This document shows positions 5,311 through 50,233 of a stretch of DNA of 64,000 bases, piece after piece. The notes under the pieces are model-generated. The model worked only from the letters and a program-made list of their open reading frames with translations. It was not told where the DNA came from and ran no database searches. The DNA is taken from positions 19,089-83,088 of the forward strand of contig CAZNDZ010000002.1 of assembly GCA_964572155.1 (NCBI GenBank), given 5' to 3'. Position 1 is the first letter of the stretch. Each line of letters starts with the position of its first letter. This DNA comes from an uncultured Planctomycetales bacterium. GTDB lineage: Bacteria; Omnitrophota; Gorgyraeia; Zapsychrales; Fredricksoniimonadaceae. The position numbers were made by a program, and so were the translations under genes.

Positions 5311-6122
5311 ACAGCAATTGGAAATTTAATAAAAGCAGCAGGTTTATATCCTGTTAATTTAAAATCTTCGAATTTATAATCCAAAACATTTTTCTTTGGT
5401 AATTCTAATTTTGGAAGCTCTGTTGGCGTTCTTTCTAGTTGCGTTTTAATGCCATCGACATGATTCAGATAAATATGCGCATCACCCAATGTATGGGTAA
5501 AAATACCTGGGACTAAATTGCATTCTTGAGCAACCATGGTCATCAATAATGCGTAGCTTGCAATATTAAACGGCACGCCTAAAGCCACATCTGCTGAACG
5601 CTGATACAATTGACAATCAAGACGGCCATTGGCTACATAGAATTGAAAAAACGCATGACATGGCGGCAAGGCCATCTTATCGATATCCCCCACATTCCAC
5701 GCGCTCACAATGATTCTTCGTGAAGTAGGATTAGTCTTAATTAGATGCAGGGCTTGAACAATTTGATCAACATAGGTTTGTTTATAGGACTTTGTATTCT
5801 CATCAAAAACGATTTTTGGCCAACGACGCCATTGATACCCATAAATAGGGCCTAATTCTCCATCAGGCTTTGCCCATGCATTCCAAATGGGTGTGTGTTG
5901 GGTTAAATCATCGTTAATATTTGTAGATCCTTTTAGAAACCAAATGAGCTCATAAACAACAGCATCAAACAAAACTTTTTTTGTGGTTAACAAAGGAAAA
6001 CCATCGCGTAGATCGTATTTGGATTGGTAACCAAACACGGAGATAGTACCCGTCCCTGTACGGTCTTCTTTGCGTTCACCGTTATCTAAAATATATTTTA
6101 CGAGTTCTAAATATTGCTTCAT
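5307..6122 (-). CDS. thyA: Thymidylate synthase
   Basis: [26 protein letters not shown]...; PPCH; [11 protein letters not shown]. The track start at 6131 is GTG. ATG at 6122 forms an ATGA overlap with the upstream stop. Confidence 0.9.
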
Positions 6123-9693: not shown

Positions 9694-10555
9694 CCCAATG
9701 ATGCAAATCCTCTATATCACGATTTCGACGCCAACCATCTTTTTCTTGGAAATGCTTAAATGAAAGCAAGTCTTGTTTCTGACTTTCCACATCCCCTATC
9801 ATCCGCATGATAGCGGCTTTTAATTCATATGCTGCAGCGTAATTTGCCGCCACCTCAATGCTACGTAACGTAAAGGCCAACGCTTCTTTTATATATCCTA
9901 AATTATAGGATGCATATGCGGCATAATAAAAAATTTCAGGATCTTTTGGAAAAATTCTCATGGCACTCGCGGCATATTCGAGAATACCATCATAAGATTT
10001 TAATTGAACCAAACACTCAAATAAATGATTATACGCCATTAATTTATCCCATGGTAATCTTTGCTCAAAGTAGTAATCAAACATAACATGGTGTCGAAAT
10101 TTAGGATTTATATGTAGCGCATCTAATAAATCAGATTTGGTTTTTGGGATTAAATAAATCGCTTTTTTATACAATTCTTGAGCTGCTGCATAATCCTTTT
10201 GTCCCTGCTTGATCACCGCTAAGTCATAATATAACGCGTATAATTTGGGGTCCATGCGAATGGCAATGTTGTATTGTTCTATGGCTTTAGCCGTGTCCTT
10301 TAAATAATAATAACAAAATCCTAAATTAGCATGCATCGCTGCCGTTGAGAATTTTCCTGCGAGCAGCGTTTGATAATAAGCTTTTGCACGTTTAAATTCG
10401 TTTCTATCAAAAGGCTTTGTTCCGTAAGAGAAGAAATGCAAGTAGTCTGCACTCGGTCTAGAGGAATTTAAAACATCATCTGCCACTTGTCCTCGGTTAA
10501 ATGCAAAGAACAAAACCACAAACATGACGACAAAAATGATCCACCCACGCATCAT
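9659..10555 (-). CDS. TPR-repeat protein with N-terminal membrane anchor
   Basis: N-terminal TM (IIFVVMFVVLFFAF) followed by multiple TPR-like A/Y-rich repeats (AKAYYQTLLAGKF..., AKAIEQYNIAIRMDPK..., AQELYKKAIYL...). Start moved to the ATG at 10555, which makes an ATGA overlap with the upstream stop (the track start at 10645 would overlap by 94 nt). Confidence 0.55.
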   Translation of the reverse strand: MMRGWIIFVVMFVVLFFAFNRGQVADDVLNSSRPSADYLHFFSYGTKPFDRNEFKRAKAYYQTLLAGKFSTAAMHANLGFCYYYLKDTAKAIEQYNIAIRMDPKLYALYYDLAVIKQGQKDYAAAQELYKKAIYLIPKTKSDLLDALHINPKFRHHVMFDYYFEQRLPWDKLMAYNHLFECLVQLKSYDGILEYAASAMRIFPKDPEIFYYAAYASYNLGYIKEALAFTLRSIEVAANYAAAYELKAAIMRMIGDVESQKQDLLSFKHFQEKDGWRRNRDIEDLHHWDENTVLFQIYR

Positions 10556-12582
10556 ACCCGTTTCACCCAGGTTAAGAAAATGCACCATATAAAGAAGCAA
10601 TAAAAGATTAAAAACACACCCATATATAAATAGTTGCCACCCCAAGGTTCAAATTCAAAACGCACATGCGACATACCCTTAGGCAAAACAACACCTTTAA
10701 AAGCATAATTTGCACGGATTAAATGAACAGGCACATCATTTACAAAAACTTTCCAGCTTGGATGATAACTGTCGTTATATACCAAAAATTTGTCTGTCGT
10801 CAAAGATGCCGTCAATTGTAATTGATTGGCATTAAACGCATCAACGCGAATACCTTGATCTTGACTTTCAACAAGCTTGCCTTGTGGCATAATCGAATAC
10901 CATTCAAGAAAATCTTCTAAACGGCTAAACGGTTGCATTTTTATTGTTGGCTCATACAACACAAACTTATGTCTAAAATATTGGTCTAGGTCGACAGAAT
11001 GACCATAGGCCTGCGACAAATCATTGGACCATACTGTTGGATAGCCATAATGCGATGTAATAAAATGATCCGCATCTTTCATGGCAATGATATGCCAATT
11101 ATAAAAACGATAGACATCATTGGGCTTTAAAACATCTGAAGAAGTCTTAGGCCTGACAAAAGCAAACGCTGGTTTTTCTAAAGGAATAGTTACAGCATTC
11201 TTAATAATGGCGGAAGGTTCCATTTGATCGAATTTTTTTGCATGCGTGGTCATAACATTGAACGGCTGAATCAATGCAATTACCACCAAGACCAACTTAA
11301 CAAAGATAATGTTCTTTCCGAAGAATGTTTCCACCCTTTGCCAAACAAAGTTGAAATTTTGTAAAGCCCATAAGATATAAAACAAAATGATAAAAGGAAT
11401 GAGTAAAAAGATATTTCTAAATAACTTAAAGAAATGAATATGATTAAACAAAAACTCATAAACAGGTGATAATCTAGCAATCGCAATTAAAAACAACACA
11501 AAACATACACACGCAAACAACAGCATCTTACGGTTAATTTTTACAAAGAAGCCTAAGAAGACCAACACATGCGCAAGGATTGGCATATAGAATATGCGTT
11601 GATTATCAAAAGCAATTGCATCAAGGGTATAAATGCTCCTTGAAAATTCCAGCATCCGCGCCTTTAACAATGATATTAACGTTGCAAATATGGAATGATC
11701 CCTCATGATTTCAGATATAGGAATCCCTGAATCTTTAACCATATTATAATCAACCGTGGTCGCACGGGCTAAAACAACAAAATCACCTCTCAAAAATATC
11801 CAATTTGCAAAACTAACTCCAATGGCAGCACATAGGGCTAAACCACCAAGCATGGCAATCCATGGACTTACAATCACCCCTCGGTATACTTGCCCAACTG
11901 TTTGATAAAGATTTTTAGGATACAAGATTAATAGGAATGCTAAGATCACAAGCGACGTCGTTAGAAAATAAAATGGTATATATGTTGTCATGATCAACAT
12001 AAACAGAAAGATCATCCACATAAGACGAGACGTCTTTTGTGTTTGAATATAATCCATTAGCAGGAAATAAAACCAAATCGATGGGACAACAATGAGTATC
12101 AAGGTGACTTGCGTAAACACCGTCATGGAATACCCAGAAAAAAGAAATAACAGAAAACCTAAATACGCTAAGAATGAATTCTTGATTAATCGATGCAGTA
12201 AAAAATACACACCCAACGCGCCAAACATCAAATACAACACAATTGTCCATATAAAACTATGATAGAAATTCACACCCAACTTATTTAATAACAAGGTGAT
12301 TACCCACAACGGATTATATTCACCAACTTGACAGACATGCCCCATGCCCCAATGAACAAAAGGATTCCAATGGGCAAAAACACCAACCATTAAATTAGAT
12401 AGAAAATATTTTACAACAGCGTATACAGCAAAAGTATCTTCACTGACAAATACATCACCCAACAAAAAACCTCTATAAATAAAACACCATAAAGCAATTG
12501 GAAGAGCGAACTTGAAGGTAGATTTAACGCGGGATAATAAAGGCATGAATGAAAACCACGATGACCCTATTTTGACGGCCAA
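10552..12582 (-). CDS. YfhO-like GT-C family membrane protein (polytopic N-terminus, soluble C-terminal domain, C-terminal TM)
   Basis: About 12 TM helices in the first 440 aa. The C-terminal region (YHPSWKVFVNDVPVHLIRANYAFKGVVLPKGMSHVRFEFEP) matches the YfhO-family C-terminus. Acidic SED motif after TM1. Confidence 0.5.
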   Translation of the reverse strand: MAVKIGSSWFSFMPLLSRVKSTFKFALPIALWCFIYRGFLLGDVFVSEDTFAVYAVVKYFLSNLMVGVFAHWNPFVHWGMGHVCQVGEYNPLWVITLLLNKLGVNFYHSFIWTIVLYLMFGALGVYFLLHRLIKNSFLAYLGFLLFLFSGYSMTVFTQVTLILIVVPSIWFYFLLMDYIQTQKTSRLMWMIFLFMLIMTTYIPFYFLTTSLVILAFLLILYPKNLYQTVGQVYRGVIVSPWIAMLGGLALCAAIGVSFANWIFLRGDFVVLARATTVDYNMVKDSGIPISEIMRDHSIFATLISLLKARMLEFSRSIYTLDAIAFDNQRIFYMPILAHVLVFLGFFVKINRKMLLFACVCFVLFLIAIARLSPVYEFLFNHIHFFKLFRNIFLLIPFIILFYILWALQNFNFVWQRVETFFGKNIIFVKLVLVVIALIQPFNVMTTHAKKFDQMEPSAIIKNAVTIPLEKPAFAFVRPKTSSDVLKPNDVYRFYNWHIIAMKDADHFITSHYGYPTVWSNDLSQAYGHSVDLDQYFRHKFVLYEPTIKMQPFSRLEDFLEWYSIMPQGKLVESQDQGIRVDAFNANQLQLTASLTTDKFLVYNDSYHPSWKVFVNDVPVHLIRANYAFKGVVLPKGMSHVRFEFEPWGGNYLYMGVFLIFYCFFIWCIFLTWVKRV

Positions 12583-13283
12583 TAAATGTCTCGAGTTAAT
12601 ACAATGATGGTTGTCAAAACTGCTTTAATGCTTTTAAAACTTAATGCTTTGGACTTATCGTGCTTACGACCTACGTGTTCAAAATAAATTGTTTTATAAT
12701 TATGGTCAGCTCTTAGCAAACGGATGATACATTCTGCCAAAGCGGCCAATCCTGTTGACTTAATCGGGATTGACTGCAAGAGATCACGGCGGCAAATAAA
12801 AGCGCCATTATAATATTTTAACTTTAATCCAAAGATCACATTCATCAATCCAACAAACATCCATGATAAGAAACGGCGCAACAAGGATCGTCGGTTGGTT
12901 TTTTTCATGTATGAAATAACAATGTCTGCTTGCCCGCGCGCTAGGATCAAGTCCTTCAAGGATTGTGCGGCCATATCATTATCACCAGGAAAAACTGTCA
13001 CAAAGTCCTTCGTTGACATTTTAACGCCACGGGAAAAAGAATACCCAAAACCTTGATTAGATGCATTGACTGCAACCCGAATATTAGCATTGCCCTCTGC
13101 TTTGATCCTTGCAAAATCACCCGTTTTATCCGGACTTCCGTCATCAACAACAATGATTTCATAATCCTGAACCAAAGAAGATACAGCAGCAACCGCATTA
13201 TCAATAGCGGCTTCTATATTATCCTCTTCCCTAAATGCAGGGATAATCACGCTGACACTTTTATGGTTGGACTTATTGGACAT
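12567..13283 (-). CDS. GT2 glycosyltransferase, polyprenyl-phosphate sugar synthase type (GtrB/CsbB/ArnC/DPM1-like)
   Basis: SVIIPAFREEDNI, IIVVDDGSPD, DGDN-like FPGDNDM, and C-terminal TM helices, as in GtrB/ArnC. Confidence 0.75.
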   Translation of the reverse strand: MSNKSNHKSVSVIIPAFREEDNIEAAIDNAVAAVSSLVQDYEIIVVDDGSPDKTGDFARIKAEGNANIRVAVNASNQGFGYSFSRGVKMSTKDFVTVFPGDNDMAAQSLKDLILARGQADIVISYMKKTNRRSLLRRFLSWMFVGLMNVIFGLKLKYYNGAFICRRDLLQSIPIKSTGLAALAECIIRLLRADHNYKTIYFEHVGRKHDKSKALSFKSIKAVLTTIIVLTRDIYWPSK

Positions 13284-14328
13284 TTTTTGTTTTTAGGATA
13301 ATACGCCCTGCTTCACCTTGCGCAAGAACGCTAAATGCTTGATTGATATCTTCTAAGTTAAAACGATGTGTGATCATTTTATCAAAAGGTAAAACCCCTT
13401 GTTTAAAACTACGGGTGTATTTGGGGATATCTCGATCTGGCAACGATTCACCACCCCATGTTCCAACAATGCGCTTGCCCTTGATTAGATCAAAAGGATG
13501 CAATGAAATTTTTTCATCTTTGCTTAAATTACCTGCAATGACACAAATACCTGTCTTCTCTTTAATGGCACTAAATGCATTTTCCATGGCGAGCTTATTA
13601 CCAGAGGCATCAACCGTATAATCAACACCACCTGGAACAATGGCGGCTATTTGCTGTAATAAATCAGGACTTTTGGCATTTAAGAAATGTGTCGCTCCTA
13701 AACGCTTCGCAAAATCTAATTTCTTTTGTTCAATATCAATGGCTATGATTGTTTTAACACCCCGACGCTTCGCCCCTAACACAACACTTAATCCAATACC
13801 TCCAACACCAAAAACAGCCACCGATGAACCCTTGGCAGCATTAACGGTATTTTCCATAATACCGCATCCTGTTAAGATGGCGCAACCTAAGATCGATGCC
13901 ACATCAGGCCTAATGGACTTTGAAATCTTGGTCACACGATTTTCTGAAACAACCGTTAAATCTGCAAATGTAGTAACCCCTCCAGCATTAATTGTCTTAC
14001 CATTCAACAAATATTGACTGTTGATTCCATCTAAACCTTCCCCTTTAATCCATGAAAGGCAGACATAATCACCCTTTTTAACTTTTGTAATCCCTGCGCC
14101 ACAATCAACAACAATCCCAGATGCTTCATGACCAAGTAAATGAGGCAAGAATTTATCAGGTCCTTTTAAACCTATCATCTCATTGTATTGAGCACGACAT
14201 ATGCCGGTATACAAAACGGAGACTAAGACTTGACCTTTTTTAAGGCGAGGGATTTCAACATCATCAATAACAAGAGGCTTATGAAGTTCCCAGAGGATGG
14301 CCGCGCGTGTTTTCATGGGATAAACCAA
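13273..14328 (-). CDS. Zn-dependent alcohol dehydrogenase (MDR family)
   Basis: GHEASGIVV zinc site, structural-zinc region, GVGGIGLSVV NAD Rossmann motif. Confidence 0.8.
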   Translation of the reverse strand: MVYPMKTRAAILWELHKPLVIDDVEIPRLKKGQVLVSVLYTGICRAQYNEMIGLKGPDKFLPHLLGHEASGIVVDCGAGITKVKKGDYVCLSWIKGEGLDGINSQYLLNGKTINAGGVTTFADLTVVSENRVTKISKSIRPDVASILGCAILTGCGIMENTVNAAKGSSVAVFGVGGIGLSVVLGAKRRGVKTIIAIDIEQKKLDFAKRLGATHFLNAKSPDLLQQIAAIVPGGVDYTVDASGNKLAMENAFSAIKEKTGICVIAGNLSKDEKISLHPFDLIKGKRIVGTWGGESLPDRDIPKYTRSFKQGVLPFDKMITHRFNLEDINQAFSVLAQGEAGRIILKTKNVQ

Positions 14329-14969
14329 TAAAAATCGCCGGTGTAATTTACTTCTTTAAATAAAGCTTTCCAAGCATCAACGTGCATATAAGTTAGCGCC
14401 GTTAAATTCCATGCATCCATACGCTCTTTTTCTTCAGGAGTTCTATACGCATCCATCGTCACAAAAGAACCCTTCTTAGCAACACGTTGAATTTCACGAA
14501 GAGATTGCTTACAGTCTTCGGGTGGCAAATTATGTATGGTGTTGATCGATATCACCACATCAAAACTTTTATCAGCAAATGGCAATTTCTTGGCATCACC
14601 TACTTGAACAAATGGCTTGATGGATTCAATAGTATTTTCAATGGCATACGTTGAGATATCAATGCCACGCACTTTAATGCCAGGGACAGCTAAGGTTAAA
14701 TCATATAACATAAAACCTTTACCACTACCCACATCAAGCACTGTACTATCCTTGGTTAAACCAAAATGCTGGATAAAGGTTGGCATAACGGGTTGCCAAA
14801 ATCTTGGATTATAGCTATACCCACCATAACCATACTTTCGGTCACCATCAAAATATTCTTTTCCAAATTGTCGGCCGATACGACGATCTTCTTCGGTCTT
14901 TTCTTGACCACGCTCAAAAACTTTACGATTTGCTTTCGGATAATTTACTAAGAGATCAATTTCAGCCAT
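14313..14969 (-). CDS. Class I SAM-dependent methyltransferase
   Basis: Motif I VLDVGSGKGFMLYDL; typical post-I acidic residue and motif II. Confidence 0.7.
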   Translation of the reverse strand: MAEIDLLVNYPKANRKVFERGQEKTEEDRRIGRQFGKEYFDGDRKYGYGGYSYNPRFWQPVMPTFIQHFGLTKDSTVLDVGSGKGFMLYDLTLAVPGIKVRGIDISTYAIENTIESIKPFVQVGDAKKLPFADKSFDVVISINTIHNLPPEDCKQSLREIQRVAKKGSFVTMDAYRTPEEKERMDAWNLTALTYMHVDAWKALFKEVNYTGDFYWFIP

Positions 14970-16726
14970 TATGCAGACACCTTCATGATTGCTAATAATT
15001 CAGCCGTAGGGATTTTAGGATTTAAGTCTTCTAAACCAGAACCAAATTTAAGCATAGGTTCAATTTTTTGATCTGGATCAATCATCAAATCACAAACAAC
15101 AGGACCTTGCATGGCTAAAACTTTTTGTATGCCAGAAACCAACTCCTGATGATTGGCAATGCGTATGGCCGGTATGCCAAATGCTTCTGCAGTCTTAACA
15201 AAGTCAGGAAAGCTTAACCCAGTCTTTTGATCTACCGCCGCATAATTAGAATTAAGCCACGTATCGATTGTTTGCTTTTGAATGGCATGCCCATCATTAC
15301 TAAAAATAAAAACTTTAACATTCATATTGTATCGACGGATCGTTGCCAATTCTTCTATGTTCATCATCAAACCACCGTCACCCGTCAAGCATAAAACACG
15401 CGAAGCGCCAGCACAAATGGCACCAACACTAGCTGAGAGCGCATATCCCATGGGCGTATGATTCCATGCTGAAAAAATACGTTGACCCAACTTCATTTCA
15501 ATCGCTTGCAAGGTCCAAGATATATTAGCCCCTGTATCGGTTACATAGACATCTGTATTAACAGAAGCCTTAGAGATTTCCTTAACAAAAACATGCCCAT
15601 CAACAAAATCTTTTCTGTCATACTTTGATGGTGGACAAATTGGATACTGCTTGGCCCATTCTTGAATTTGATTTCTCCAGGCAACATAACGATCTTGATT
15701 CCCGTCACACAAAGAAATCAATAATTTAAAGAACAATGGTAATGGTGACTGAACACCCAAATCTAAACGAAAATCATTTTGAGTAAACTTACTTAACTCG
15801 TGTGGGTCTATATCTATTAAAACTTTTTTTGCCTTTGGTGCGAATAACGTAGTCTTACCACCTGTAATCATTTGAGATAATCTTGTTCCAGCACCAATGA
15901 TTAAATCTGCATTTTGCGCTGCAAAATTTCCTGAGCGTGGACCAACCACACCTAAGCCACCCATATTTAGCGGGTCATCATAAGCCATGATGTCTTTGCC
16001 GCCCCATGTCAATAAAATTGGTATGCCTAGTTTACGTGCAAAATTTAATACAGGATCTATCGCACCTGCAATACGAACGCCTGCTCCTAAAACAAGGACT
16101 GGTCTTTTTGCATCTTTGATCCATCCAATCAATTGGGTTGCTTGCTCACTACATTCTGGATAATGATCTTTTGCTGGCACAGGAAATTCACGCAATTGGC
16201 TGACATCAATGTCCATGCGTTGCAAATCATCAGGTATGTCAATCACAACTGGACCTGGTCGATCATGTGTTGCAATATATAACGCTTTTTGTAATTCATA
16301 CTTAATGTCATATGGATCCATCACGCGAACAGAATACTTTGTAATAGATGAGAACAATGAAACAACATCAGTTTCTTGAAAACCTTTTTGACGCAACTTT
16401 TCACTAGGGCGCAACCGCGGCGTTGTAACTTGACCACAAATAAATAAACAGGGAATAGAATCAAAATACGCATTGCAAATGCTGGTCGTTAAATTTGTGG
16501 CACCTGGGCCGGATGTGACCATGACAGTACCAACTTTACCACTAATACGCGAATAGGCATCCGCTGCTGCACCACCAGCTTGTTCGTGCTGAACACAGAT
16601 ATAATCCATATCTTTGTGTCGAGCCACAGCGTCTATTGAGTGAATAATGGCGCCGCCAGAGACTACAAAAACATGTTTGATCTCATGACCATGTAAAAAT
16701 TGTGCGATATAATCCGCTAATTTCAT
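14969..16726 (-). CDS. Thiamine-diphosphate enzyme of the acetolactate-synthase/YerE type (TPP + FAD-like middle domain)
   Basis: N-terminal TPP_enzyme_N (HVFVVSGGAIIHSID), central domain, and C-terminal TPP binding motif GDGGLMMNIEELATI...N. Confidence 0.8.
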   Translation of the reverse strand: MKLADYIAQFLHGHEIKHVFVVSGGAIIHSIDAVARHKDMDYICVQHEQAGGAAADAYSRISGKVGTVMVTSGPGATNLTTSICNAYFDSIPCLFICGQVTTPRLRPSEKLRQKGFQETDVVSLFSSITKYSVRVMDPYDIKYELQKALYIATHDRPGPVVIDIPDDLQRMDIDVSQLREFPVPAKDHYPECSEQATQLIGWIKDAKRPVLVLGAGVRIAGAIDPVLNFARKLGIPILLTWGGKDIMAYDDPLNMGGLGVVGPRSGNFAAQNADLIIGAGTRLSQMITGGKTTLFAPKAKKVLIDIDPHELSKFTQNDFRLDLGVQSPLPLFFKLLISLCDGNQDRYVAWRNQIQEWAKQYPICPPSKYDRKDFVDGHVFVKEISKASVNTDVYVTDTGANISWTLQAIEMKLGQRIFSAWNHTPMGYALSASVGAICAGASRVLCLTGDGGLMMNIEELATIRRYNMNVKVFIFSNDGHAIQKQTIDTWLNSNYAAVDQKTGLSFPDFVKTAEAFGIPAIRIANHQELVSGIQKVLAMQGPVVCDLMIDPDQKIEPMLKFGSGLEDLNPKIPTAELLAIMKVSA

Positions 16727-17400
16727 TTAACCCCCACACCCATACCAAAAATATAGTGGCACATTGGTGCAAAACCTGTGGTTAAGACTTCATCATTCAT
16801 GCCAAACATAAACACACGTTTAAAATATTTGCTCATTAAGGCATTGAGTGATTTCTGGCTATGTAAATTGATGTGCTGAACGCGACTACGTTCTGACGCA
16901 TAATCATTGGCTGTGATATTTGGGGTCCCAATGATACAAACACCATCTTTTTTAAGAATCTTGGCTTGGGATTCAACAAAGGGATCATTTAAATGATTAT
17001 CTAAATGTTCAATAACATCAATCGAATAAGCCCCGTCGAATTTCTCTTTTGGTAATTTCAAATCTTGTATGGTGCCGCATTTAAATTCAATGTTTTTTAA
17101 CTTTGCCAAACGTTTCTTATTACTTTCGATATGCCTGGCATCTGGTTCAATCGCCAAAACATTTTTAACATGTTGAGCAACAATGGGCGTTCCAAAAGCA
17201 TCCCCACAACCAACTTCAATGGCTGAATCAAAACCATCAAACATTTTCGCAGGAAATTTATAACGGGCCAACACAAAACCCAAATGCTTTGGGTCATGTA
17301 AGAGGCTATATGATGTCCATGGACCTAATTCTACTGAGTCAATAAACTGATAATCTGTACCTAAATGATATGCTTCTTCTTGAGTAATTTTTTTAGCCAT
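16723..17400 (-). CDS. Class I SAM-dependent methyltransferase
   Basis: Motif I IEVGCGDAFGTPIVA; acidic IEPD. Confidence 0.7.
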   Translation of the reverse strand: MAKKITQEEAYHLGTDYQFIDSVELGPWTSYSLLHDPKHLGFVLARYKFPAKMFDGFDSAIEVGCGDAFGTPIVAQHVKNVLAIEPDARHIESNKKRLAKLKNIEFKCGTIQDLKLPKEKFDGAYSIDVIEHLDNHLNDPFVESQAKILKKDGVCIIGTPNITANDYASERSRVQHINLHSQKSLNALMSKYFKRVFMFGMNDEVLTTGFAPMCHYIFGMGVGVK

Positions 17401-17412
17401 ATCCTCTGCTTT

Positions 17413-18225
17413 CTATTTTAAAAATGCATTCCCAGATCTGCGCAATTTATACATATCTTGATTTCTTTTCAAAGCATTAACTAACTTGGCTCGTTTATCT
17501 TTTTTCCAAGGGTCGTAAACGATAGAAAAATTTCTGCCAGACACAACACTCTTACCCTGAGCACGAAACCATTCGATGCTTTCGTAAATATCACTTAGCG
17601 GCGTACCTTGTTTGCTCTTTAAAAAATCTTTGGTTTCAATAACCTTAAGCTTAGCCGTACGTTTATCATTTAGAATGGTATTGTGTATTTTAGTTTTTGT
17701 CCAGCCTGGACCAACAATAAATATATTCAAATCCTTATTCTCTGCATCTAAGAACTCACACATCTTAGCTAATAATATTTTAGAAACGGTATAGGCAGAG
17801 AAATTCTTAACCGCTCCATTCATACCACCACCAGCAAAAAGCACCACATCTGAAGTTTTCTTTTGACGGTATGGGTGTAAAACATGCAAGGCACGTAATT
17901 GAGCTAAACAATTAGTATTTACTGACGATTGCCATTCATCAAAATCCGCATCAAAGAACGGAACAACAGGCAATGGATGACCCACACAAGATATAAAAAC
18001 ATCCCATCGCAATTTTCGTTGTTTAAAGAAAGAACCTAAAGCAATAATATCTTTTGATTTTGAAACATCGCACTGTATTAAGGTGCAGTGTTTATGATTT
18101 TTAATTGCTGCTAAATTACCTTGGCTTCGATACGTACCAATAACCTTAAAACCATCTGCTAAATAACGCTTGGCCATATCTAGGCCGATATCACTGCTAA
18201 TCGATAAAATAAAAACAGTGCGCAT
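17413..18225 (-). CDS. Short-chain dehydrogenase/reductase-like protein (divergent)
   Basis: Degenerate glycine-rich N-terminus (ILSISSDIG), YTVSK (YxxxK) catalytic pair, overall SDR length. Confidence 0.5.
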   Translation of the reverse strand: MRTVFILSISSDIGLDMAKRYLADGFKVIGTYRSQGNLAAIKNHKHCTLIQCDVSKSKDIIALGSFFKQRKLRWDVFISCVGHPLPVVPFFDADFDEWQSSVNTNCLAQLRALHVLHPYRQKKTSDVVLFAGGGMNGAVKNFSAYTVSKILLAKMCEFLDAENKDLNIFIVGPGWTKTKIHNTILNDKRTAKLKVIETKDFLKSKQGTPLSDIYESIEWFRAQGKSVVSGRNFSIVYDPWKKDKRAKLVNALKRNQDMYKLRRSGNAFLK

Positions 18226-19256
18226 TAGTAGGGCCCGACAAAGGTGTCGACTATTTTTTCTTTGAAATCAAATTTATCTTTACGCTCTAACAGCTCGTAT
18301 GCCGTTGCTATGATGGTTTCAAAGTTAGGATAAAAAGCTTCTTCCAAAGGCTTTGAAACTGGGCACGGTGATTCTGGCCATGTGATGCGCTTAACGGGTG
18401 CTTTTAAATACTCAAACGCTTTATCTGCAACAACCGCGGCAACTTCTGACGCAAAACTACAGCGTAACCAGCTGGTATCAGCGACGATCAATTTGCCTGT
18501 TTTTTGCACGGATTGAATGATGGTTTTCTCATCTAAAGGATTAATGGTGATCGGATCAATGACTTCGACGCTAATCCCAACTTTTTCTAATTGTTCTGCG
18601 GCTTTCAAAGCTTGGCTCACCATCCATGATGTCGCCACAATGGTTAAATCTTTTCCAACACGTGCAATGCGTGCTTGTCCAAAGGGAACGGTGTAATAAT
18701 CTTGCGGCACATCCATTTTAATATCATATAAGGAACGATGTTCCAAGATAACGACAGGCGAATCTGACTTTAGTGACTGTAAAATGATGCCTTTGATATC
18801 ACAGGCATTGCTTGGCATGGCAACGATCATGCCTGGAAAATGCGCTAACACAGACTGAATACTTTGAGAATGCGTTGGGCCTTGCCCCCACCCTTTACCA
18901 ATTATGCCACGCACGACGATCGGCACCACAGATTTTCCAGCGTAGGTGTATTTCCATTTTGCAGCATTGTTGATCATCTGATCCAAAGCCAAAAACATAA
19001 AATCATTACGTGCATGCACAAGCACTGGGCGTTTTTTATTTAGCGCAGCACCGATCGCAACACCTGTTAAAGCATTTTCAGATGCTGGTGTATCAAAAAC
19101 ACGGGCATTACCAAATTTTAAGAACGCGTCGCGTGTCGTATTAAAAATGCCTTTGTAATCATCGACACCAAGACCAAAGATAAAAACATTGGGATCCTTA
19201 TCCATGCCTTGGCATAACGCTTCACTAATTGCTTGTCCGTATGTGATTTCACGCAT
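18225..19256 (-). CDS. TPP-dependent dehydrogenase E1 component, beta subunit (transketolase-like pyrimidine-binding + C-terminal domain)
   Basis: REITYGQAISEAL...FIFGLGV matches the E1 beta pattern. Confidence 0.8.
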   Translation of the reverse strand: MREITYGQAISEALCQGMDKDPNVFIFGLGVDDYKGIFNTTRDAFLKFGNARVFDTPASENALTGVAIGAALNKKRPVLVHARNDFMFLALDQMINNAAKWKYTYAGKSVVPIVVRGIIGKGWGQGPTHSQSIQSVLAHFPGMIVAMPSNACDIKGIILQSLKSDSPVVILEHRSLYDIKMDVPQDYYTVPFGQARIARVGKDLTIVATSWMVSQALKAAEQLEKVGISVEVIDPITINPLDEKTIIQSVQKTGKLIVADTSWLRCSFASEVAAVVADKAFEYLKAPVKRITWPESPCPVSKPLEEAFYPNFETIIATAYELLERKDKFDFKEKIVDTFVGPY

Positions 19257-19258
19257 GA

Positions 19259-20215
19259 TTAATATACCGATCTAAGTAGTTCTGAAGTTTCTGGCCAAGG
19301 TGCAGATAAAGCCAATGCATAGGCTTCATCAGATCGCTTGATCCATTTTTGATTAAGTGCATCTACATCTGCTTGGGATAACACTTTTTCCTTAACTAAT
19401 TTTTCACTGTATCGCTTGATTGGGCAACGCGACATCCACAATTCAACTTCGTCCTTGGTGCGGTAGCCTCGATCATAATCAAACAATGGCCCAACATGCT
19501 CACGAAAACGATAGGTTAAACATTCAACAAATTGCGGTGTCTGAGTCTTGCGAATTTCTTCAATGACTTTGCTAAGTGTCTGAAATACCATTTCTACATC
19601 ATTGCCATCAATTTGGGTTGTTTTTAAATCTGCAGAAGCAAGACGTTGATAAATCGGCGATGACGGTTGACGCACACTTAATGGCGAATGCGTTGAATAC
19701 AAATTATTTTCACAAAGAAACAGCACTGGGAGTTTCTTAGCTAAGGCAAAATTTAATGTTTCAGGAAAAACCCCTTCTTCAATCGTGGCATCTCCAAAAA
19801 TAGAAACTGCCACATTGTCTTTCTTATCCATTTTAAAAGATAATGCCGCGCCAGCAGCAACAGGGATCATGGCACCCAAAATTGGTGATGAATAAACATG
19901 CACCGACGGATCTGTCAAATGCGCTGAACCAGCCCTGCCACGAGAAACACCGGTGACACGACCGCATAATTCTGCAAAAAATCCATTAAAGTCCCCACCT
20001 TTAGCCAAATAGGCGGCATGACATCTGTGACCTGTAAAAACTTGATCCTCTTGTCTTAATGCCAGCGATAACCCAGCCGACACTGCTTCTTGCCCAATCG
20101 ACAAATGTGTTGGGGTCTTCATCATCTGTTCTTTGGCATAAACAGCAACGATCTTTTCTTCGGCTTGCCGAATCTTGATCATACCTTCTAATAATTCTTT
20201 TTTAGGAATGCTCAT
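19259..20215 (-). CDS. TPP-dependent dehydrogenase E1 component, alpha subunit
   Basis: LSIGQEAVSAG, GHR.HAAYLAKGG, GDATIEEG TPP motif. No E2 or E3 gene anywhere in the window. Confidence 0.8.
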   Translation of the reverse strand: MSIPKKELLEGMIKIRQAEEKIVAVYAKEQMMKTPTHLSIGQEAVSAGLSLALRQEDQVFTGHRCHAAYLAKGGDFNGFFAELCGRVTGVSRGRAGSAHLTDPSVHVYSSPILGAMIPVAAGAALSFKMDKKDNVAVSIFGDATIEEGVFPETLNFALAKKLPVLFLCENNLYSTHSPLSVRQPSSPIYQRLASADLKTTQIDGNDVEMVFQTLSKVIEEIRKTQTPQFVECLTYRFREHVGPLFDYDRGYRTKDEVELWMSRCPIKRYSEKLVKEKVLSQADVDALNQKWIKRSDEAYALALSAPWPETSELLRSVY

Positions 20216-21225
20216 TGTAAATTAACCGCTTGCATGGTTTTGATATTGTAATATTTATTATCGGTCATAGAATTAGGCACCTTACCTGCTTCAAATGCCT
20301 TGCGTAAATCGATGACAGCATCGGCAATCGTGTGCTTTGGCTTAAACCCTAACTCTTTTTGAATCTTTTCTGAAGAAATATGATACGAACGATTGTCGTT
20401 TGTTGGTTCAACAACAATTTCTATGGATGGTCGATTTAGATTATCTTTGACCATATGCGCAATTTGACTGACAGAATGATTTTCATAACCCGCATTAAAA
20501 ATCTTTCCGGCAATTTTTTCTGCTGGGTATTTTAGCGTCTCAATATATAAATCCGTCATGTCTTCAATGTGCAAATTAGGACGTTTTTGATCGCCACCAA
20601 ATACTTTGATGCGATTATTATTGATCGCATGATTGGTTAAAATATTAACAGTCAAATCCAAACGTAAACGTGGTGAATAGCCACACACTGTGGCTGGGCG
20701 TAAAACGAGCACAGTAAAATCTTTGGTCTGCGCTTTTAATAAGACATCCTCACATAAAGCTTTATATTTCGAGTAATCCGTCAAAGGTTCAAGCGGTAAA
20801 TCCTCCGTCACATTTGGCGTCTCCTTGACACCATAAACACTTGAACTCGACGCATAAATAAAACGCTGAACTTTATTTTTCTTGGAAATATCAACCAAAG
20901 GAATAAACGCATCATAATTAATGGTTTTAGCTAAATTGGGATTTAATTCATAACTTGGATCATTTGAGATGCAAGCTAAATGAATCACGGCATCTGTACC
21001 TGGAATTTCTTTTTCTAACAAGGCAACATCACGAATATCACCTTTAACGCAGGTCAATTGCTTATTATTCTTAACACCGTCGAAAACATCTGTACCGTAT
21101 AGGAACAAATCCAAAACTTTAACATTATAACCCGCTGCTAATAATTTTGGAATTAACACAGCGCCCACATAACCTGCCCCACCTGTAACAAAAACATTTT
21201 TTATCATGAGAGATACTCCTTGCAC
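20212..21225 (-). CDS. NAD-dependent nucleotide-sugar epimerase/dehydratase (extended SDR)
   Basis: VFVTGGAGYVGAVL, YSKYK. Confidence 0.8.
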   Translation of the reverse strand: MQGVSLMIKNVFVTGGAGYVGAVLIPKLLAAGYNVKVLDLFLYGTDVFDGVKNNKQLTCVKGDIRDVALLEKEIPGTDAVIHLACISNDPSYELNPNLAKTINYDAFIPLVDISKKNKVQRFIYASSSSVYGVKETPNVTEDLPLEPLTDYSKYKALCEDVLLKAQTKDFTVLVLRPATVCGYSPRLRLDLTVNILTNHAINNNRIKVFGGDQKRPNLHIEDMTDLYIETLKYPAEKIAGKIFNAGYENHSVSQIAHMVKDNLNRPSIEIVVEPTNDNRSYHISSEKIQKELGFKPKHTIADAVIDLRKAFEAGKVPNSMTDNKYYNIKTMQAVNLQ

Positions 21226-22130
21226 TTACGTAAGACATTTTCGGGCAATATATAATTCATACAAAAATCTTTATTAGTACAATATGGCATATAACACGGC
21301 ATTTGAGGGCAATTGAGCGTCGAGGAAACCACTTCGACATTGGGAATACCCTGCATGCGCAAATAATTTGTTGGCCCGTACAAGGTTATAACTTTTTTTC
21401 CTAAAGCCTGACCAATCGCTTGCCCTAATGAATCCGAAGTTACAATGATACGACAACTGTTAATCCATTCAATATATTTGACGAGATTCTTGTGCCCTTG
21501 TTGCCAACTCACAGAATACTTGCCTTGTAGCAACATTTCAAGCTTCTTCCAATGATCCATGGGCCATGCTTTGGTCGGCCATTTGCTGCCAACAGAATGA
21601 TTAAATCCTACATCATATTTAATACGGACATGACGGCCATTGCCCAAAACCAACCCTTGCCCGTTCCACTTCTTATCTACAGTTTCGTACAATAACTCTA
21701 GGGCATTTTTAGGGATATCACGTTGATTTTCTTGACCGGATAATAAATAACGCGTTGAACGTTTGCGCGTCGTGATTTGATGAGACTTATCGTTGAAATA
21801 AAATCCAAACTTCTTCTTCGACGTGATGCGATTGATCAACGTGCAGATGCCAATATCTTTTTCTAAGTTGATTACAATATCAAACTTTTCCTGGCATAAA
21901 TCTTCCATAACTTTGGAGCCAAAAATAAGTAAACGCGAAATATAGGGATTATTTTTCAAGAGTTGTTTGGCTTGCCAATCCGTTACCCACGCCACATCAT
22001 CATCTTTGTATATATGCAAAAGAGCGGTACAAATAAGAACATCGCCTAGACTGACCGTTGTAGAAATGCCGCGGTCAAGAAACTCCGAAAAACCAGTTTT
22101 TATGATCAAAACTTTTCGTTTTTGTTTCAT
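21204..22130 (-). CDS. GT9 family glycosyltransferase (heptosyltransferase-like)
   Basis: KVLIIKTGFSEFLDRGISTTVSLGDVLICTAL... matches the GT9 N-terminal pattern. C-terminal IIVTSDSLGQAIGQALGKKVITLYGPT matches the GT9 donor-binding region (ADP-heptose enzymes: D.G..HLA.A.G.P.V.LFGPT). Confidence 0.65.
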   Translation of the reverse strand: MKQKRKVLIIKTGFSEFLDRGISTTVSLGDVLICTALLHIYKDDDVAWVTDWQAKQLLKNNPYISRLLIFGSKVMEDLCQEKFDIVINLEKDIGICTLINRITSKKKFGFYFNDKSHQITTRKRSTRYLLSGQENQRDIPKNALELLYETVDKKWNGQGLVLGNGRHVRIKYDVGFNHSVGSKWPTKAWPMDHWKKLEMLLQGKYSVSWQQGHKNLVKYIEWINSCRIIVTSDSLGQAIGQALGKKVITLYGPTNYLRMQGIPNVEVVSSTLNCPQMPCYMPYCTNKDFCMNYILPENVLRKCKEYLS

Positions 22131-22154
22131 GAAAGATCTAAAATCATTTGAGGA

Positions 22155-23117
22155 CTAACGGTGAACGGCTCCTGCAGTCGCATCTTGTTTGCCGTAAGTA
22201 TTGACCACTTCATCGACATACTCGTGATTTTCCGCATACGGTTCGCTGATCGCACGTATTTCAACTGAGGAATGTCCATATTCTTGAAACCGATTATTCT
22301 TCACCTTAATGTCACAAGAATTACATTTACCATAAACTGCACATGGCACCCACTCACCCAATAATTTAGGTGGCTCAACATCTAATAAATGCCCCAATGG
22401 AAAACGATTGGCATACAAATCAGAATGGCAACGAAACACATATCCTGCCGGATCAATTAAGAATTCTGTCGTGCGACAATCACAATTACGGATTTGACGA
22501 GAATTGACTGCTTCTGGATAGCGCATTGTCCCGTAGGTTGTCCCGTTGTATGGTCCTAAGAATTCTTTTAAACGAAAATCAATGCCCATGGCCTCTGCTT
22601 GTTTTTGAACTTTGCGCGTTTCTTCCATATATTCAGGATGATCCACCGCCCAGACGCCAACATGATACCCTTTATCCATAAAATAGCGCACACGTTTAAG
22701 CAAAACATCAGGATCTTGTTGACCACGGTGATATGAAACACGTATGGAAGCATATGGTGCATCGCGTTTAATACGATCTTTGGGGATATGGCTCATAAAA
22801 ACATCTGAGTCAACTTCCAAATTGGTCAATAAATCAATGGGAAGATCAGATCTTAAGCCCTTAACAATTTCATAAAAATGTTTATGAACGGTTGGCTCGC
22901 CACCTTGCAAGGTGATGGGGATATTGCCTTCTTTTGTTTGAAGGCGATTTAAACCGCGTATCCAGTCTTCACCTGTCATCCAGCGTTTCTTGACCAAGTC
23001 ACCACCATGGTGATTGATGCAATAGCTGCAACGCAACATACAAGCAAAAGATAGGAAAGCTGCGATATAATTAAAAGAATCGGGAAGAACAATTGGTTTT
23101 AGGTCGGAATTTGACAT
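22155..23117 (-). CDS. Radical SAM enzyme with C-terminal Cys-rich (SPASM/twitch-like) region
   Basis: CMLRCSYC = CxxxCxxC about 25 aa from the N-terminus. GGEPT SAM motif. C-terminal Cys cluster (CDC...C...C...C.SC). Confidence 0.7.
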   Translation of the reverse strand: MSNSDLKPIVLPDSFNYIAAFLSFACMLRCSYCINHHGGDLVKKRWMTGEDWIRGLNRLQTKEGNIPITLQGGEPTVHKHFYEIVKGLRSDLPIDLLTNLEVDSDVFMSHIPKDRIKRDAPYASIRVSYHRGQQDPDVLLKRVRYFMDKGYHVGVWAVDHPEYMEETRKVQKQAEAMGIDFRLKEFLGPYNGTTYGTMRYPEAVNSRQIRNCDCRTTEFLIDPAGYVFRCHSDLYANRFPLGHLLDVEPPKLLGEWVPCAVYGKCNSCDIKVKNNRFQEYGHSSVEIRAISEPYAENHEYVDEVVNTYGKQDATAGAVHR

Positions 23118-23123
23118 GGCTTA

Positions 23124-23152
23124 ATAGTAATATAAAACAACATTGCCTTCAA
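23124..23152 (-). promoter_or_regulatory. Candidate sigma70-type promoter TTGAAG-N17-TACTAT immediately upstream of the radical SAM start; would give a leaderless or near-leaderless transcript
   Basis: Read on the minus strand in the 40 bp TerC/radical-SAM intergenic region. No obvious SD precedes the ATG at 23117. Confidence 0.3.
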
Positions 23153-23157
23153 TATAA

Positions 23158-23937
23158 TTATCTAGAAATGCGCAACTTTTTTTTATTAGCATTTATAGAT
23201 AATAAAATTGCTAAGAGTAATGATGATCCAATAAATGTTAATTTCAATACAATCGGTATATGCAACACATGTTCTAAGAGCATGCTCGAACCCACGAAAA
23301 CCAGAATAGAACCTAATGCATAATGCAAATAGGTAAACATCGGCATTACCGCTGCTAATGCAAAATACATCGCCCGCAATCCAATGATAGCAAATACATT
23401 TGACGTCCAAACAATAAATGGATCCTTGGTGATGGCAAAGATTGCTGGGATCGAGTCGAGCGCAAATAATAAATCGGTAAATTCTACAATAATAAGGATA
23501 ACAACCCAATCTTTGAGACGCGGAAAATGCTTCTTACAGAAGAGCAAAATCTTATTTTCTTCCATATGAATATCTTTTTCTTTATCAACAAACATTTTAA
23601 TACCCATAAGTACAAGGAATGTACCCAAAACATATAATAGCCATGAAAACATCATGATCAGTTTAATGCCGACGATAATTAGGATAGCACGCATCAATTG
23701 TGCGCCCCAAACACCCCATGTTAGAATCTTTGCCTGTTCATGACTTTCGCACTTAAAATATTTAAAAATCATTAAAAACACAAAAATATTATCAACGCTT
23801 AAAGACAATTCAATTAAATATCCCGTAAAAAACTCAAGTGCTTTTTGATGCCCTTGGTAATAATAGATGCCGGCATTAAATGCTAAAGCCGCCAAAACCC
23901 AACCTATGCTTGCTATAACTGCAGTACGCATTTTCAT
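23158..23937 (-). CDS. TerC family integral membrane protein
   Basis: LSLSVDNIFVF and TDLLFALDSIPAIFAIT duplicated TerC motifs; 7-8 TM helices. Confidence 0.75.
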   Translation of the reverse strand: MKMRTAVIASIGWVLAALAFNAGIYYYQGHQKALEFFTGYLIELSLSVDNIFVFLMIFKYFKCESHEQAKILTWGVWGAQLMRAILIIVGIKLIMMFSWLLYVLGTFLVLMGIKMFVDKEKDIHMEENKILLFCKKHFPRLKDWVVILIIVEFTDLLFALDSIPAIFAITKDPFIVWTSNVFAIIGLRAMYFALAAVMPMFTYLHYALGSILVFVGSSMLLEHVLHIPIVLKLTFIGSSLLLAILLSINANKKKLRISR

Positions 23938-24368
23938 CGTTGAAATACCCCGCTTTTACCACCGCTCTTATGAATTAATTGAATATTTGATATACACATA
24001 TCTTGCCCCGCCCACTTCATCATGTCATAAATGGTCAAGCATGCCGCACTGACCGCAGCCAAACTTTCCATTTCAACCCCAGTTTTACCCGTGCAAACCA
24101 CCTCAGCTATAACCTTAATTGTATTCTTACTTTTTATAGCTTCAAAATTTACTGTAATTTTTTCTAAATTCAATGGATGACAATATGCAAGGATTGCTGG
24201 CGTAAATTTTGCTGCATTAATGCCAGCTAATTTGGCCGCTTCAAACACATCACCTTTGGGAGATTTCTTGGCTAATAAATCTTTAAACGCTTTAGGCTTC
24301 AATGTAATCATGCCTGTTGCGACTGCTTTCCTGACACTAACATTTTTTTGACTAATATCAATCATCAC
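23934..24368 (-). CDS. moaC: Cyclic pyranopterin monophosphate synthase accessory protein MoaC
   Basis: [23 protein letters not shown] matches the MoaC core. Length 144 aa. Confidence 0.85.
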
Positions 24369-24723
24369 TCATGGATCCTTTACGATTTTTCTTTTTTGCA
24401 GATTGTCGCTTTTTATCAGCCAACATGCGTTCCTTCGCAGACAACGATCGTTTGCGATTCTGTCGACGACGTTTCTCTTGCATGGACTTGCGTTGTTGCT
24501 GCCGAAATAGCTCGCGCTCTTCTAATGCTTGTTGCAATAATTCCCATGCACGGATGCGGTTTTGATACTGACCACGAAATTCTTGGCATTTTATCACAAT
24601 ACCCGTTGGCTTATGAATGAGCATGACACAAGACTCAACCTTATTGACATTCTGCCCACCTGGGCCGCTCGAACGTACAAAAGATTCTATTACTTCGTCT
24701 TTTGATATAAGTATCCGGCCCAT
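24358..24723 (-). CDS. arfB: Peptidyl-tRNA hydrolase ArfB (class I release-factor-like GGQ domain with basic C-tail)
   Basis: [15 protein letters not shown] motif; Lys/Arg-rich C-terminal tail; about 120 aa. Confidence 0.75.
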
Positions 24724-25565
24724 TCTCTTGCCTTTACGGTTTGAATTAACTTAAAATTGTTAAGCTTAAATCCTTTTTCAAATACAGGGCAATTGCTCAA
24801 TGATATGCCAGAAACTGCCAAGAAACCACCCTTGCTTACAAAACGTGCAATCTTTTTTTGTGTCGTGATTAAATCCTGCGTCACTAAATTAGCAGCAACA
24901 AAATCATAAGTCTTATCATGTTTAAAATGATTAATGTCTGCACATAATACAGTAGCTTTTAATTGATTTACTTTAAAATTTTTCTTGGCCGCCTCAACCG
25001 ATAAATCTCCAATATCAAGCGCAACAACCCTTTTCGCACCATGCTTTAAGGCCACCATCCCCAGAATACCTGTGCCTGTACCAATATCAAGCAATGTTTT
25101 GATATACTCACGTTGATCTTCAATCATCTGTGAAACAATTTGTGTTGTTTCATGTAAGCCTGTTCCAAAAGATAACAATGTATCCATCAAGATATAATCT
25201 CTGCCCGCCACCTTTTTATATTTCTTTTGGCACCACACCGGAACAACATCTAATAGTTTCGTCAAACGCGATGGCTTCCACTGCGTTTTCCAACGGGACG
25301 CCCAATCTTTAGGTCTTAAGGTCTTGGTGCTTACCTTAACTTTTAACTTTAATTTATGAAATAAGCTCTTAACCTTCACGAATTCTGAGCGCAACGTAAA
25401 ATAAATCTTTAGCGAGGATGCCTTTAAGTTTAAGTCTTCAATGATATCGTTTGATGAAATTCCTAATGCTAGTAGGACCGTACGCACAAGCGCCAAATCA
25501 TTAGGATCTTTGCTTTGAAAGGTGATTTCGTAAACTAACTGTGGGATGCGTTCTTGGGAAATCAA
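24690..25565 (-). CDS. prmA: Ribosomal protein L11 methyltransferase-like (PrmA)
   Basis: [28 protein letters not shown] motif I, the PrmA N-terminal domain, length 291 aa. Confidence 0.65.
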
Positions 25566-50230: not shown

Positions 50231-50233
50231 AAA

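Follow-up and report, generated by a model that had tools for sequence, protein, structure and literature searches.

An operon of an uncultured Omnitrophota bacterium with two thiamine diphosphate-dependent systems, proposed to build a branched, methylated heptose

The DNA analyzed here (the window) is a 64,000-nucleotide stretch from an uncultured Planctomycetales bacterium that GTDB places in Omnitrophota (positions 19,089–83,088 of contig CAZNDZ010000002.1, assembly GCA_964572155.1). Its minus strand bears an operon of 14 genes, which opens with ten consecutive, tightly packed open reading frames (ORFs; 13273–23117) and includes two thiamine diphosphate (ThDP)-dependent systems: an enzyme resembling acetolactate synthase (ALS) and an E1 alpha/beta pair. 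The operon probably builds a ThDP-branched, methylated heptose, destined for the cell surface and passed on via a lipid carrier, a reading that we hold with moderate confidence and whose chemistry is inferred.

In the order of transcription, with Pfam families in brackets, the first ten genes encode a radical S-adenosylmethionine (SAM) protein (22155–23117; Radical_SAM), a glycosyltransferase family 9 (GT9)-like protein (21204–22130; Glyco_transf_9 at 49.3 bits against a cut-off of 22, the match covering only the C-terminal part), an extended short-chain dehydrogenase/reductase (SDR) of epimerase-like type (ORF 20212–21225; Epimerase/GDP_Man_Dehyd), E1 alpha (19259–20215; E1_dh), E1 beta (18225–19256; Transket_pyr and Transketolase_C), a short-chain reductase (17413–18225; adh_short), methyltransferase 1 (16723–17400; Methyltransf_11/25), the ALS-like protein (14969–16726; TPP_enzyme_N/M/C), methyltransferase 2 (14313–14969; Methyltransf_25/11), and a Zn-type alcohol dehydrogenase (ADH; ORF 13273–14328; ADH_N and ADH_zinc_N). 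Junction lengths and start choices are taken from the gene calls of an identical metagenome contig, L001 (Logan SRR10036063 and others). Neighboring genes overlap by 1–4 nt at six of the nine junctions and are separated by 2, 12, and 24 nt at the rest, and the epimerase-like and ADH genes probably use the later starts at 21207 (331 amino acids) and 14316 (347 amino acids), respectively.

Past 13273, the operon runs on with overlaps into four further genes, which encode a glycosyltransferase family 2 (GT2) protein (12567–13283; Glycos_transf_2), a large polytopic membrane protein of 664 amino acids that is weakly YfhO-like (10552–12546; its 27 bits with Pfam YfhO narrowly miss the cut-off), a tetratricopeptide repeat (TPR) protein with an N-terminal membrane segment (9659–10588; TPR families), and, as the last gene, a putative PMT-like glycosyltransferase of the GT-C class (8149–9693; 49% identity to a PF02366 (PMT) family of related loci). 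A terminator-like hairpin at 8158–8136 on the minus strand, directly after the stop of the PMT-like gene and before an alpha-glucan phosphorylase gene, is the likely end of the operon. Scans of positions 6000–25000 for promoters and terminators gave no excess over shuffled controls (69 versus 65 promoter-like and 22 versus 16 terminator-like sites). A previous sequence-only reading of the window had described ten contiguous genes on one strand, many of them overlapping, that flow into a lipid-linked glycosyltransfer module. The ORFs and gene calls bear this layout out, the GT2 and GT-C/TPR genes continue the operon, and each of the ten domain assignments of that reading is reproduced by Pfam in a profile hidden Markov model check.

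The setting of the ALS-like gene is conserved far beyond the window. A scan of one genome per GTDB species with an alignment of 27 ALS-like sequences yields about 50 loci (cited below as L numbers) that encode a protein 42–89% identical to that of the window. Their hosts are Omnitrophota (several records being labeled 'Planctomycetales'), Chlamydiota (Simkania, Parachlamydiales), Nitrospirales, Gammaproteobacteria/Thiotrichaceae, Neomarinimicrobiota, Verrucomicrobia, the candidate phyla radiation (CPR) groups Gottesmanbacteria and Andersenbacteria, and, among archaea, Woesearchaeota. The counts given here refer to the 25 loci, drawn from at least eight phyla, in which the sequence extends for 8 kb or more to either side of the ALS-like gene (fully flanked loci). 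Families were assigned in them by tblastn with the window proteins and by clustering of all ORFs of 40 family loci; 29 loci with an ordinary ALS (32–36% identical, mostly from Clostridia) serve as controls.

A core of eight genes is conserved, and it lies within glycan clusters: the extended SDR (21 of the 25 loci), E1 alpha and E1 beta, the short-chain reductase (18/25, in many cases directly adjoining the ALS-like gene), methyltransferase 1 (12/25), the ALS-like gene itself, methyltransferase 2 (16/25, usually paired with the ADH gene), and the Zn-ADH (13/25). By tblastn, the E1 pair stands beside orthologous ALS-like genes in 18 of the 25 loci; ORF clustering undercounts E1 alpha (14/25) through losses in ORF calling. 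The arrangement is not due to chance, because the same families adjoin orthologous ALS-like genes in many phyla and none of the E1, reductase, methyltransferase, and ADH families occurs in the 29 control loci. The sequence-only reading had taken the ten genes as one unit and the presence of both ThDP systems in one cluster as unusual. All ten are indeed present in the operon, but the conserved unit is the core of eight: among the family loci, the radical SAM and GT9 genes are found in Omnitrophota only and are a lineage-specific add-on of this phylum. Most cassettes of this family have both ThDP systems, so that their coexistence is no oddity of the window. The neighborhood survey proposed in that reading shows the homologous clusters to be sugar clusters, of which no description was found in the literature searched. 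That the cassette is scattered unevenly over two domains suggests that a surface-decoration trait has moved horizontally between organisms of groundwater and sediment.

The ALS-like protein has TIGR00118 (ALS large subunit) as its best NCBIfam model, at 396.2 bits against a cut-off of 538.35, and its scores against other ALS equivalogs are likewise far under their cut-offs. Neither ilvH/ilvN nor alsD, nor any other ilv/als context, occurs in the window or among the recurrent families of the 40 related loci. The closest solved structure is that of JanthE (8rph/8rpi/8rpj; E 1e-98, 334 bits, 33% identity over 568 residues), a YerE-like ThDP carboligase from Janthinobacterium sp. HH01 that couples a range of 2-oxo acids to ketones (PMC12188165, PMC12247030). 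Across the 27 sequences of the family, from bacteria and archaea, mean column identity is 65%, with H47–E48 (containing the catalytic Glu) and the ThDP motif (G449-D450-G451...N477) invariant. The protein is proposed to be a carboligase of the YerE/JanthE type, which would put an acyl branch on a keto-sugar.

The neighbors of this gene in other lineages bear on the donor substrate. In L028, L036, and L037, the gene right after the ALS-like gene encodes PanB (ketopantoate hydroxymethyltransferase), and in L042, L044, and L055 the gene right before it encodes a class I/II aminotransferase. PanB and class I/II aminotransferases make or interconvert 2-oxo acids. These neighbors hint at a 2-oxo acid donor that depends on the lineage, and they fit the published scheme in which YerE-like enzymes use lineage-specific, functionalized 2-oxo acids as donors for acyl-branched sugars (PMC9306805).

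The E1 proteins likewise fall below curated cut-offs. E1 alpha, which is of the alpha-keto acid dehydrogenase 2 type, matches best TIGR03182 (pyruvate dehydrogenase E1 alpha; 259.7 bits, cut-off 393.85), and E1 beta matches best NF006667 (pyruvate dehydrogenase E1 beta; 302.9 bits, cut-off 321). In every related locus with the pair, the E1 beta gene adjoins the E1 alpha gene. No E2 or E3 gene is present in the window, and none recurs in the related loci, the search covering the 64-kb window and these loci; the single Pyr_redox_2 match of the window (33670–35040) is weak and partial (27.9 bits). The view that the E1 pair lacks E2/E3 partners, and that neither it nor the ALS-like enzyme is an ordinary pyruvate dehydrogenase or ALS, thus stands on scores under the cut-offs for all three proteins and on a window free of E2, E3, and ilvH genes. 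A split transketolase (Transketolase_N and a C-terminal subunit) replaces the E1 pair in L030 and L040 and accompanies it in L047 and L055; the latter two loci contain three different ThDP systems in one sugar cluster.

The keto-sugar acceptor would be supplied by the extended SDR. This protein scores below the NCBIfam cut-offs for GalE and HldD, and its best PDB match is 6vo6/6vo8 (E 6.6e-44, 34% identity), the next match being at 6e-28. The deposited name of 6vo6 is 'Putative sugar-nucleotide epimerase/dehydratease'; from this name and the sequence, it is probably Campylobacter jejuni Cj1427, a nucleotide-heptose C4-dehydrogenase. The SDR of the window (20212–21207) is proposed to be a C4-dehydrogenase that makes a 4-keto-heptose acceptor.

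Heptose genes accompany the cassette in other phyla. By tblastn, the window SDR shares 54–68% identity with its counterparts in loci with heptose genes, and heptose-nucleotide genes of any kind are found in 15 of the 25 loci and in none of the 29 controls. Outside Omnitrophota, the accessory families all have heptose-nucleotide enzymes as their best NCBIfam models, namely HldE domains I and II (fused in reversed order, or split), GmhA, GmhB, HddA, and HddC. In five Chlamydiota loci, a protein 62–68% identical to the 6vo6 chain replaces the window-type SDR beside HddA/HddC-like genes (in L033, it lies directly upstream of the ALS-like gene), and to judge from these genes the five loci use the HddA/HddC (GDP-heptose) route. 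In the window, the product of hldD (958–1956, minus strand) reaches 375.9 bits with TIGR02197 (cut-off 274.6) and is a bona fide ADP-glyceromanno-heptose 6-epimerase; the organism therefore makes ADP-L-glycero-D-manno-heptose. The sequence-only reading had recorded this hldD and had raised a heptose-derived sugar as a possibility, which gains support from the 6vo6-nearest SDR, the heptose genes in related loci, and the fold match of the GT9-like protein.

Other enzymes of the core may tailor the sugar. The short-chain dehydrogenase is of the classical type, with its YxxxK motif present, and is proposed, by analogy with YerF, to reduce the branch ketone. Both methyltransferases are SAM-dependent, and the Zn-ADH is an oxidoreductase of the medium-chain type. 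Sugar C-methyltransferases (Methyltransf_13) are found in about 12 of the 40 clustered loci.

The genes that flank the core point to glycosyl transfer. An AlphaFold2 model of the GT9-like protein (predicted local distance difference test (pLDDT) 88) finds WaaC, the Veillonella GT9 protein 3tov, WaaF, and TibC as its best Foldseek matches (template modeling (TM) score 0.55–0.67, E 1e-11 to 1e-5), which places it among the GT9-family glycosyltransferases with the heptosyltransferase fold. Asp30, within a 'GDV' motif, is invariant and corresponds to the N-terminal catalytic Asp; just before this motif, the model has a 14-residue insert of low confidence. Four C-terminal cysteines (C274/C279/C284/C290) are also invariant and look like a metal or Fe-S site. 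TibC is an iron-containing heptosyltransferase.

The GT2 protein matches best DPMS (5mlz), ArnC, and GtrB in the PDB (E 1e-9 to 6e-8) and is found in 12 of the 25 loci, those of archaea and CPR bacteria included. It is predicted to be a polyprenyl-phosphate glycosyltransferase of the DPMS/ArnC/GtrB type, which would load the sugar onto a lipid carrier. The polytopic protein has homologs in L004 and L008 and is, like the product of the last gene, a candidate GT-C enzyme; the evidence for GT-C proteins consists of weak YfhO and GT22 matches and of the 49% identity to the PF02366-positive family. In L004, L005, L008, L034, L039, L050, and L055, the GT2 gene is regularly followed by genes for two small membrane proteins (about 171 and 177 amino acids; no Pfam match), which could be a flippase or adaptor. 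The window is without these two proteins, and no recognizable flippase is found in it.

The radical SAM protein has a CX3CX2C motif (C26/C30/C33) and six conserved C-terminal cysteines (C212, C214, C230, C259, C265, and C268), so that the Cys-rich tail noticed in the sequence-only reading is real. No SPASM match is given by Pfam. In its AlphaFold2 model (pLDDT 85), the nearest structures are anSMEcpe, PqqE, BlsE, and EpeE, at modest TM scores of 0.41–0.46, and the C-terminal part is probably a SPASM/twitch-like domain for auxiliary clusters. The role of the enzyme is possibly oxidation or epimerization.

Homologs of this protein with 54–64% identity (L086, L087, L088, L089, and L090) are encoded mostly on phage contigs of 40–48 kb. 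In the four phage contigs inspected, including two IMG/VR genomes, the radical SAM gene belongs to a conserved block that also contains SPASM radical SAM genes (one or two), a gene for a protein of about 130 amino acids, and genes for mini E1 alpha-like and mini E1 beta-like proteins, and that adjoins genes of DNA replication. The two mini-E1 proteins have matches to phrog_34187, for which no function is assigned, and the radical SAM protein has no match among cultured phages (INPHARED). SPASM radical SAM genes also lie beside the ALS-like gene in archaeal and Omnitrophota loci; these were considered as possible members of the phage SPASM family and were rejected as belonging to a different one. 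At the same operon position in a distant Omnitrophota lineage (L004/L018, 3474–4376), the radical SAM protein is 39% identical to that of the window, whereas the phage copies are about 60% identical. These observations suggest that the gene has been exchanged between phages and hosts and that the radical SAM enzyme is functionally paired with an E1-type ThDP enzyme.

These assignments can be assembled into a pathway. A nucleotide-activated glycero-manno-heptose would be drawn from the lipopolysaccharide (LPS)-core pathway and oxidized at C4 by the Cj1427-like SDR, giving a 4-keto-heptose. The ALS-like ThDP enzyme would then decarboxylate a 2-oxo acid and add the resulting acyl-anion equivalent to the ketone, which would produce an acyl branch of two or more carbons on a tertiary alcohol, and the short-chain reductase would reduce the branch ketone as YerF does. 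Acting as an E2-independent carboligase, the E1 pair may add a further C2 unit at a second carbonyl, which possibly comes from the Zn-ADH or, in Omnitrophota, from the radical SAM enzyme. Both methyltransferases would methylate the product. The GT2 protein would move the finished sugar to polyprenyl phosphate, from which the PMT/YfhO-like GT-C proteins and their TPR partner would transfer it to an acceptor outside the cytoplasm. A published description of a pathway that combines heptose, a YerE-like enzyme, and an E1 pair was not found in the literature searched, in keeping with the remark in the sequence-only reading that the gene combination was not recognizable as a described pathway. A paper on heptose in the S-layer of anammox bacteria proved to have no bearing on it.

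A wider proposal, which we offer only tentatively, is that the cassette is a mobile one shared by at least eight phyla (Omnitrophota, DPANN Woesearchaeota, CPR bacteria, and environmental Chlamydiota among them) and that it turns a nucleotide-heptose into a novel higher-carbon sugar through two, and in some lineages three, successive ThDP-dependent C–C bond formations and methylation, with surface display by the lipid-carrier/GT-C module. In addition, the radical SAM enzyme and an E1-type enzyme may be a functional pair that uncultivated phages of about 45 kb have taken up, or have given away, and keep in their replication region, which would point to a ThDP-dependent modification of nucleotides or DNA.

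Several observations weigh against the proposed branched-heptose pathway, all of whose chemical steps are inferred. The assignment of the ALS-like protein to the YerE type holds with respect to JanthE, its nearest relative of solved structure, but does not extend to PpYerE (5ahk), which at 251 bits is no closer than plant acetohydroxyacid synthase at 254 bits. JanthE, which the literature describes without a physiological substrate (PMC12188165, PMC12247030), is no guide to the product. In the E1 pair, both active-site histidines of lipoyl-dependent E1 enzymes are kept (in 'YRFREHVG' of alpha and 'PTHSQS' of beta); the sequence appears compatible with the ordinary E1 reaction and speaks neither for nor against a lipoyl-independent role. 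The accessory heptose enzymes of other phyla score under the NCBI curated cut-offs. Inside the cluster, the window and the other Omnitrophota loci have no heptose-activation genes, and in a tblastn search of the window with representatives from other loci, only the PMT-like gene was matched. The link of the window to heptose would thus run through hldD, which lies 6 kb past the last gene of the operon, the GT9-like gene, and analogy with other phyla.

The place of the E1 pair is the point at which a related pathway deserves the most weight. In seven of the 25 loci, the ALS-like gene stands without an E1 pair. The pair is therefore accessory tailoring with no fixed place in the pathway, and the ALS-like enzyme does not rely on it for its donor. 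The sugar pathway could be as proposed, with the E1 pair instead building, trimming, or exchanging the side chain, so that a single, more elaborate branch results. One possibility is that the pair splits or creates the alpha-hydroxy-ketone product of the ALS-like enzyme, in the manner of acetoin:DCPIP oxidoreductase on methylacetoin; another is that it makes an acyloin precursor. E1-type enzymes that cleave acetoin do act on tertiary alpha-hydroxy ketones (PMC12247030), the very group that a YerE-like enzyme makes; in most loci the E1 genes stand next to those for the reductase and the ALS-like enzyme, and a split transketolase that replaces or joins the E1 pair suggests interchangeable tailoring. 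The donors of YerE-like enzymes are 2-oxo acids, however, not acyloins (PMC9306805), and in aldgamycin and kibdelomycin biosynthesis the E1 pairs transfer acetyl straight from pyruvate to keto-sugars (PMC12247030), which together with the loci without an E1 pair makes this variant rather unlikely in our estimate.

The nature of the sugar is a separate matter, and a hexose, pentose, or uronate nucleotide could be the substrate in this Omnitrophota lineage, the heptose link being valid for other phyla only. GmhA, HldE, and HddA/C are absent within 10 kb in all eight fully flanked Omnitrophota loci (L004, L005, L008, L013, L014, L021, L044, and L047), as they are in the window, the SDR is just 34% identical to the 6vo6 chain, and all characterized enzymes of the YerE type act on a CDP-3,6-dideoxy-4-keto-hexose (PMC9306805). 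The identity of 54–68% between the window SDR and those of heptose-gene loci implies the same substrate class, though, the operon has a gene of the GT9 heptosyltransferase fold and the window has hldD, and no deoxy-hexose dehydratase or nucleotidyltransferase is seen by Pfam in the operon and its neighborhood; we regard a non-heptose substrate as improbable. It is highly improbable that the product is a non-glycan small molecule, such as a cofactor, signal, or antibiotic-like compound derived from heptose or a cyclitol, with glycosyltransferases that only decorate or export it. ADP-heptose-derived secondary metabolites exist, septacidin being an example (PMC9978623), E1-type sugar branching is otherwise known from secondary metabolites alone (PMC12247030), and close radical SAM homologs with mini-E1 genes occur in phage replication modules, which are not an envelope setting. 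Against this stand a constant link with envelope glycosylation (GT2 and GT-C in Omnitrophota, archaea, and CPR bacteria; GT2, GT90, and an ABC exporter in Chlamydiota) and the absence of polyketide synthase, nonribosomal peptide synthetase, and aglycone genes from every clustered locus. That an ALS and the E1 component of a pyruvate or acetoin dehydrogenase, both serving ordinary central metabolism, lie among sugar genes by chance is contradicted by the data and hardly tenable: the best NCBIfam models are those of the ALS large subunit and of pyruvate dehydrogenase E1 alpha and E1 beta, and the E1 catalytic residues are kept, but all three proteins fall below the curated cut-offs, the partner genes (ilvH/N, alsD, E2, and E3) are neither in the window nor recurrent in the 40 related loci, and the co-localization with sugar genes is kept from archaea to Chlamydiota and absent from the 29 loci with a genuine ALS.

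The surroundings of the operon are ordinary. Housekeeping genes (TerC, MoaC, PrmA) lie upstream of it, those for alpha-glucan phosphorylase, thyA, and folA lie downstream, and the rest of the window encodes ordinary metabolism (sulfate assimilation, tricarboxylic acid cycle enzymes, transhydrogenase). A complete-looking sulfate assimilation block at 46816–53971 on the minus strand, which is unremarkable and has no relation to the sugar operon, contains a sulfate ABC transporter with its binding protein, two PAPS_reduct-family (CysD/CysH-like) proteins, and a CysN-like GTPase; a porin of the phosphate-selective type is encoded upstream of it. Many metagenome-assembled genomes labeled 'uncultured Planctomycetales bacterium' (L008–L016 and other GenBank records) share the cluster and its flanks with records labeled Omnitrophota, with MoaC upstream and the phosphorylase, thyA, and folA downstream. 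The taxonomic labels of these records are probably inconsistent.

To our knowledge, the branching of sugars by ThDP enzymes has been described for a few LPS sugars, through enzymes of the YerE type, and for actinomycete antibiotics, through those of the E1 type, but never with both types together and never on heptoses. Nor do we know of any characterization of the glycans of Omnitrophota, DPANN archaea, CPR bacteria, and environmental chlamydiae. The branched-heptose pathway, if true, would add a new way of making complex higher sugars and would give a first concrete entry point to the surface chemistry of these groups. The cassette is also a source of new carboligases for biocatalysis that accept ketones, among them a well-conserved JanthE-related family.

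Among known systems, the biosynthesis of yersiniose, erwiniose, and caryophyllose (YerE, ErwE, and MMAR_2332, with YerF-type reductases) is similar in that an ALS-fold ThDP enzyme, a keto-sugar-forming SDR, an NAD(P)H reductase, and a SAM methyltransferase are encoded in an envelope cluster. In addition, the PanB and aminotransferase genes of other loci could supply functionalized 2-oxo acids, as the ErwI aldolase does (PMC9306805). The acceptor in those pathways is CDP-3,6-dideoxy-4-keto-glucose, whereas the one proposed here is a 4-keto-heptose; the cassette is without the CDP-hexose dehydratase (E1/E3-type) genes, has a second ThDP system, and is hosted by uncultivated phyla and archaea. 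JanthE differs from the window protein in its ThDP motif, which is CDG in place of the canonical GDG.

The E1 pair has its counterparts in AlmDI/DII, AviB1/B2, and KbDH, for which adjacent E1 alpha and beta genes without E2/E3 likewise lie in a nucleotide-sugar tailoring cluster with a reductase and a methyltransferase (PMC12247030). This likeness is one of gene context. Those pairs belong to actinomycete antibiotic clusters and are the sole ThDP enzyme there, whereas in the cassette the pair is accompanied by a YerE-like enzyme, and the clusters are those of envelope glycans in unrelated phyla.

In the modification of capsular heptose by C. jejuni, 4-keto-heptose is a branch point for tailoring (PMC10680097). 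The SDR of the window has 6vo6/6vo8 as its nearest structures, and the Chlamydiota versions of the cassette hold the 62–68% identical relatives together with HddA/HddC-like genes. The keto-heptose of C. jejuni, however, is only epimerized, dehydrated, and reduced, and no C–C bond-forming enzyme takes part. The end of the operon resembles the two-step lipid-carrier systems ArnC/ArnT, GtrB/GtrC, CsbB/YfhO, and DPMS/PMT, in which a small GT2 protein related to DPMS/ArnC/GtrB is followed by polytopic proteins of the PMT/YfhO type. It departs from these systems in that the cassette has a separate TPR protein with its GT-C enzymes and that the proposed donor is a novel modified sugar.

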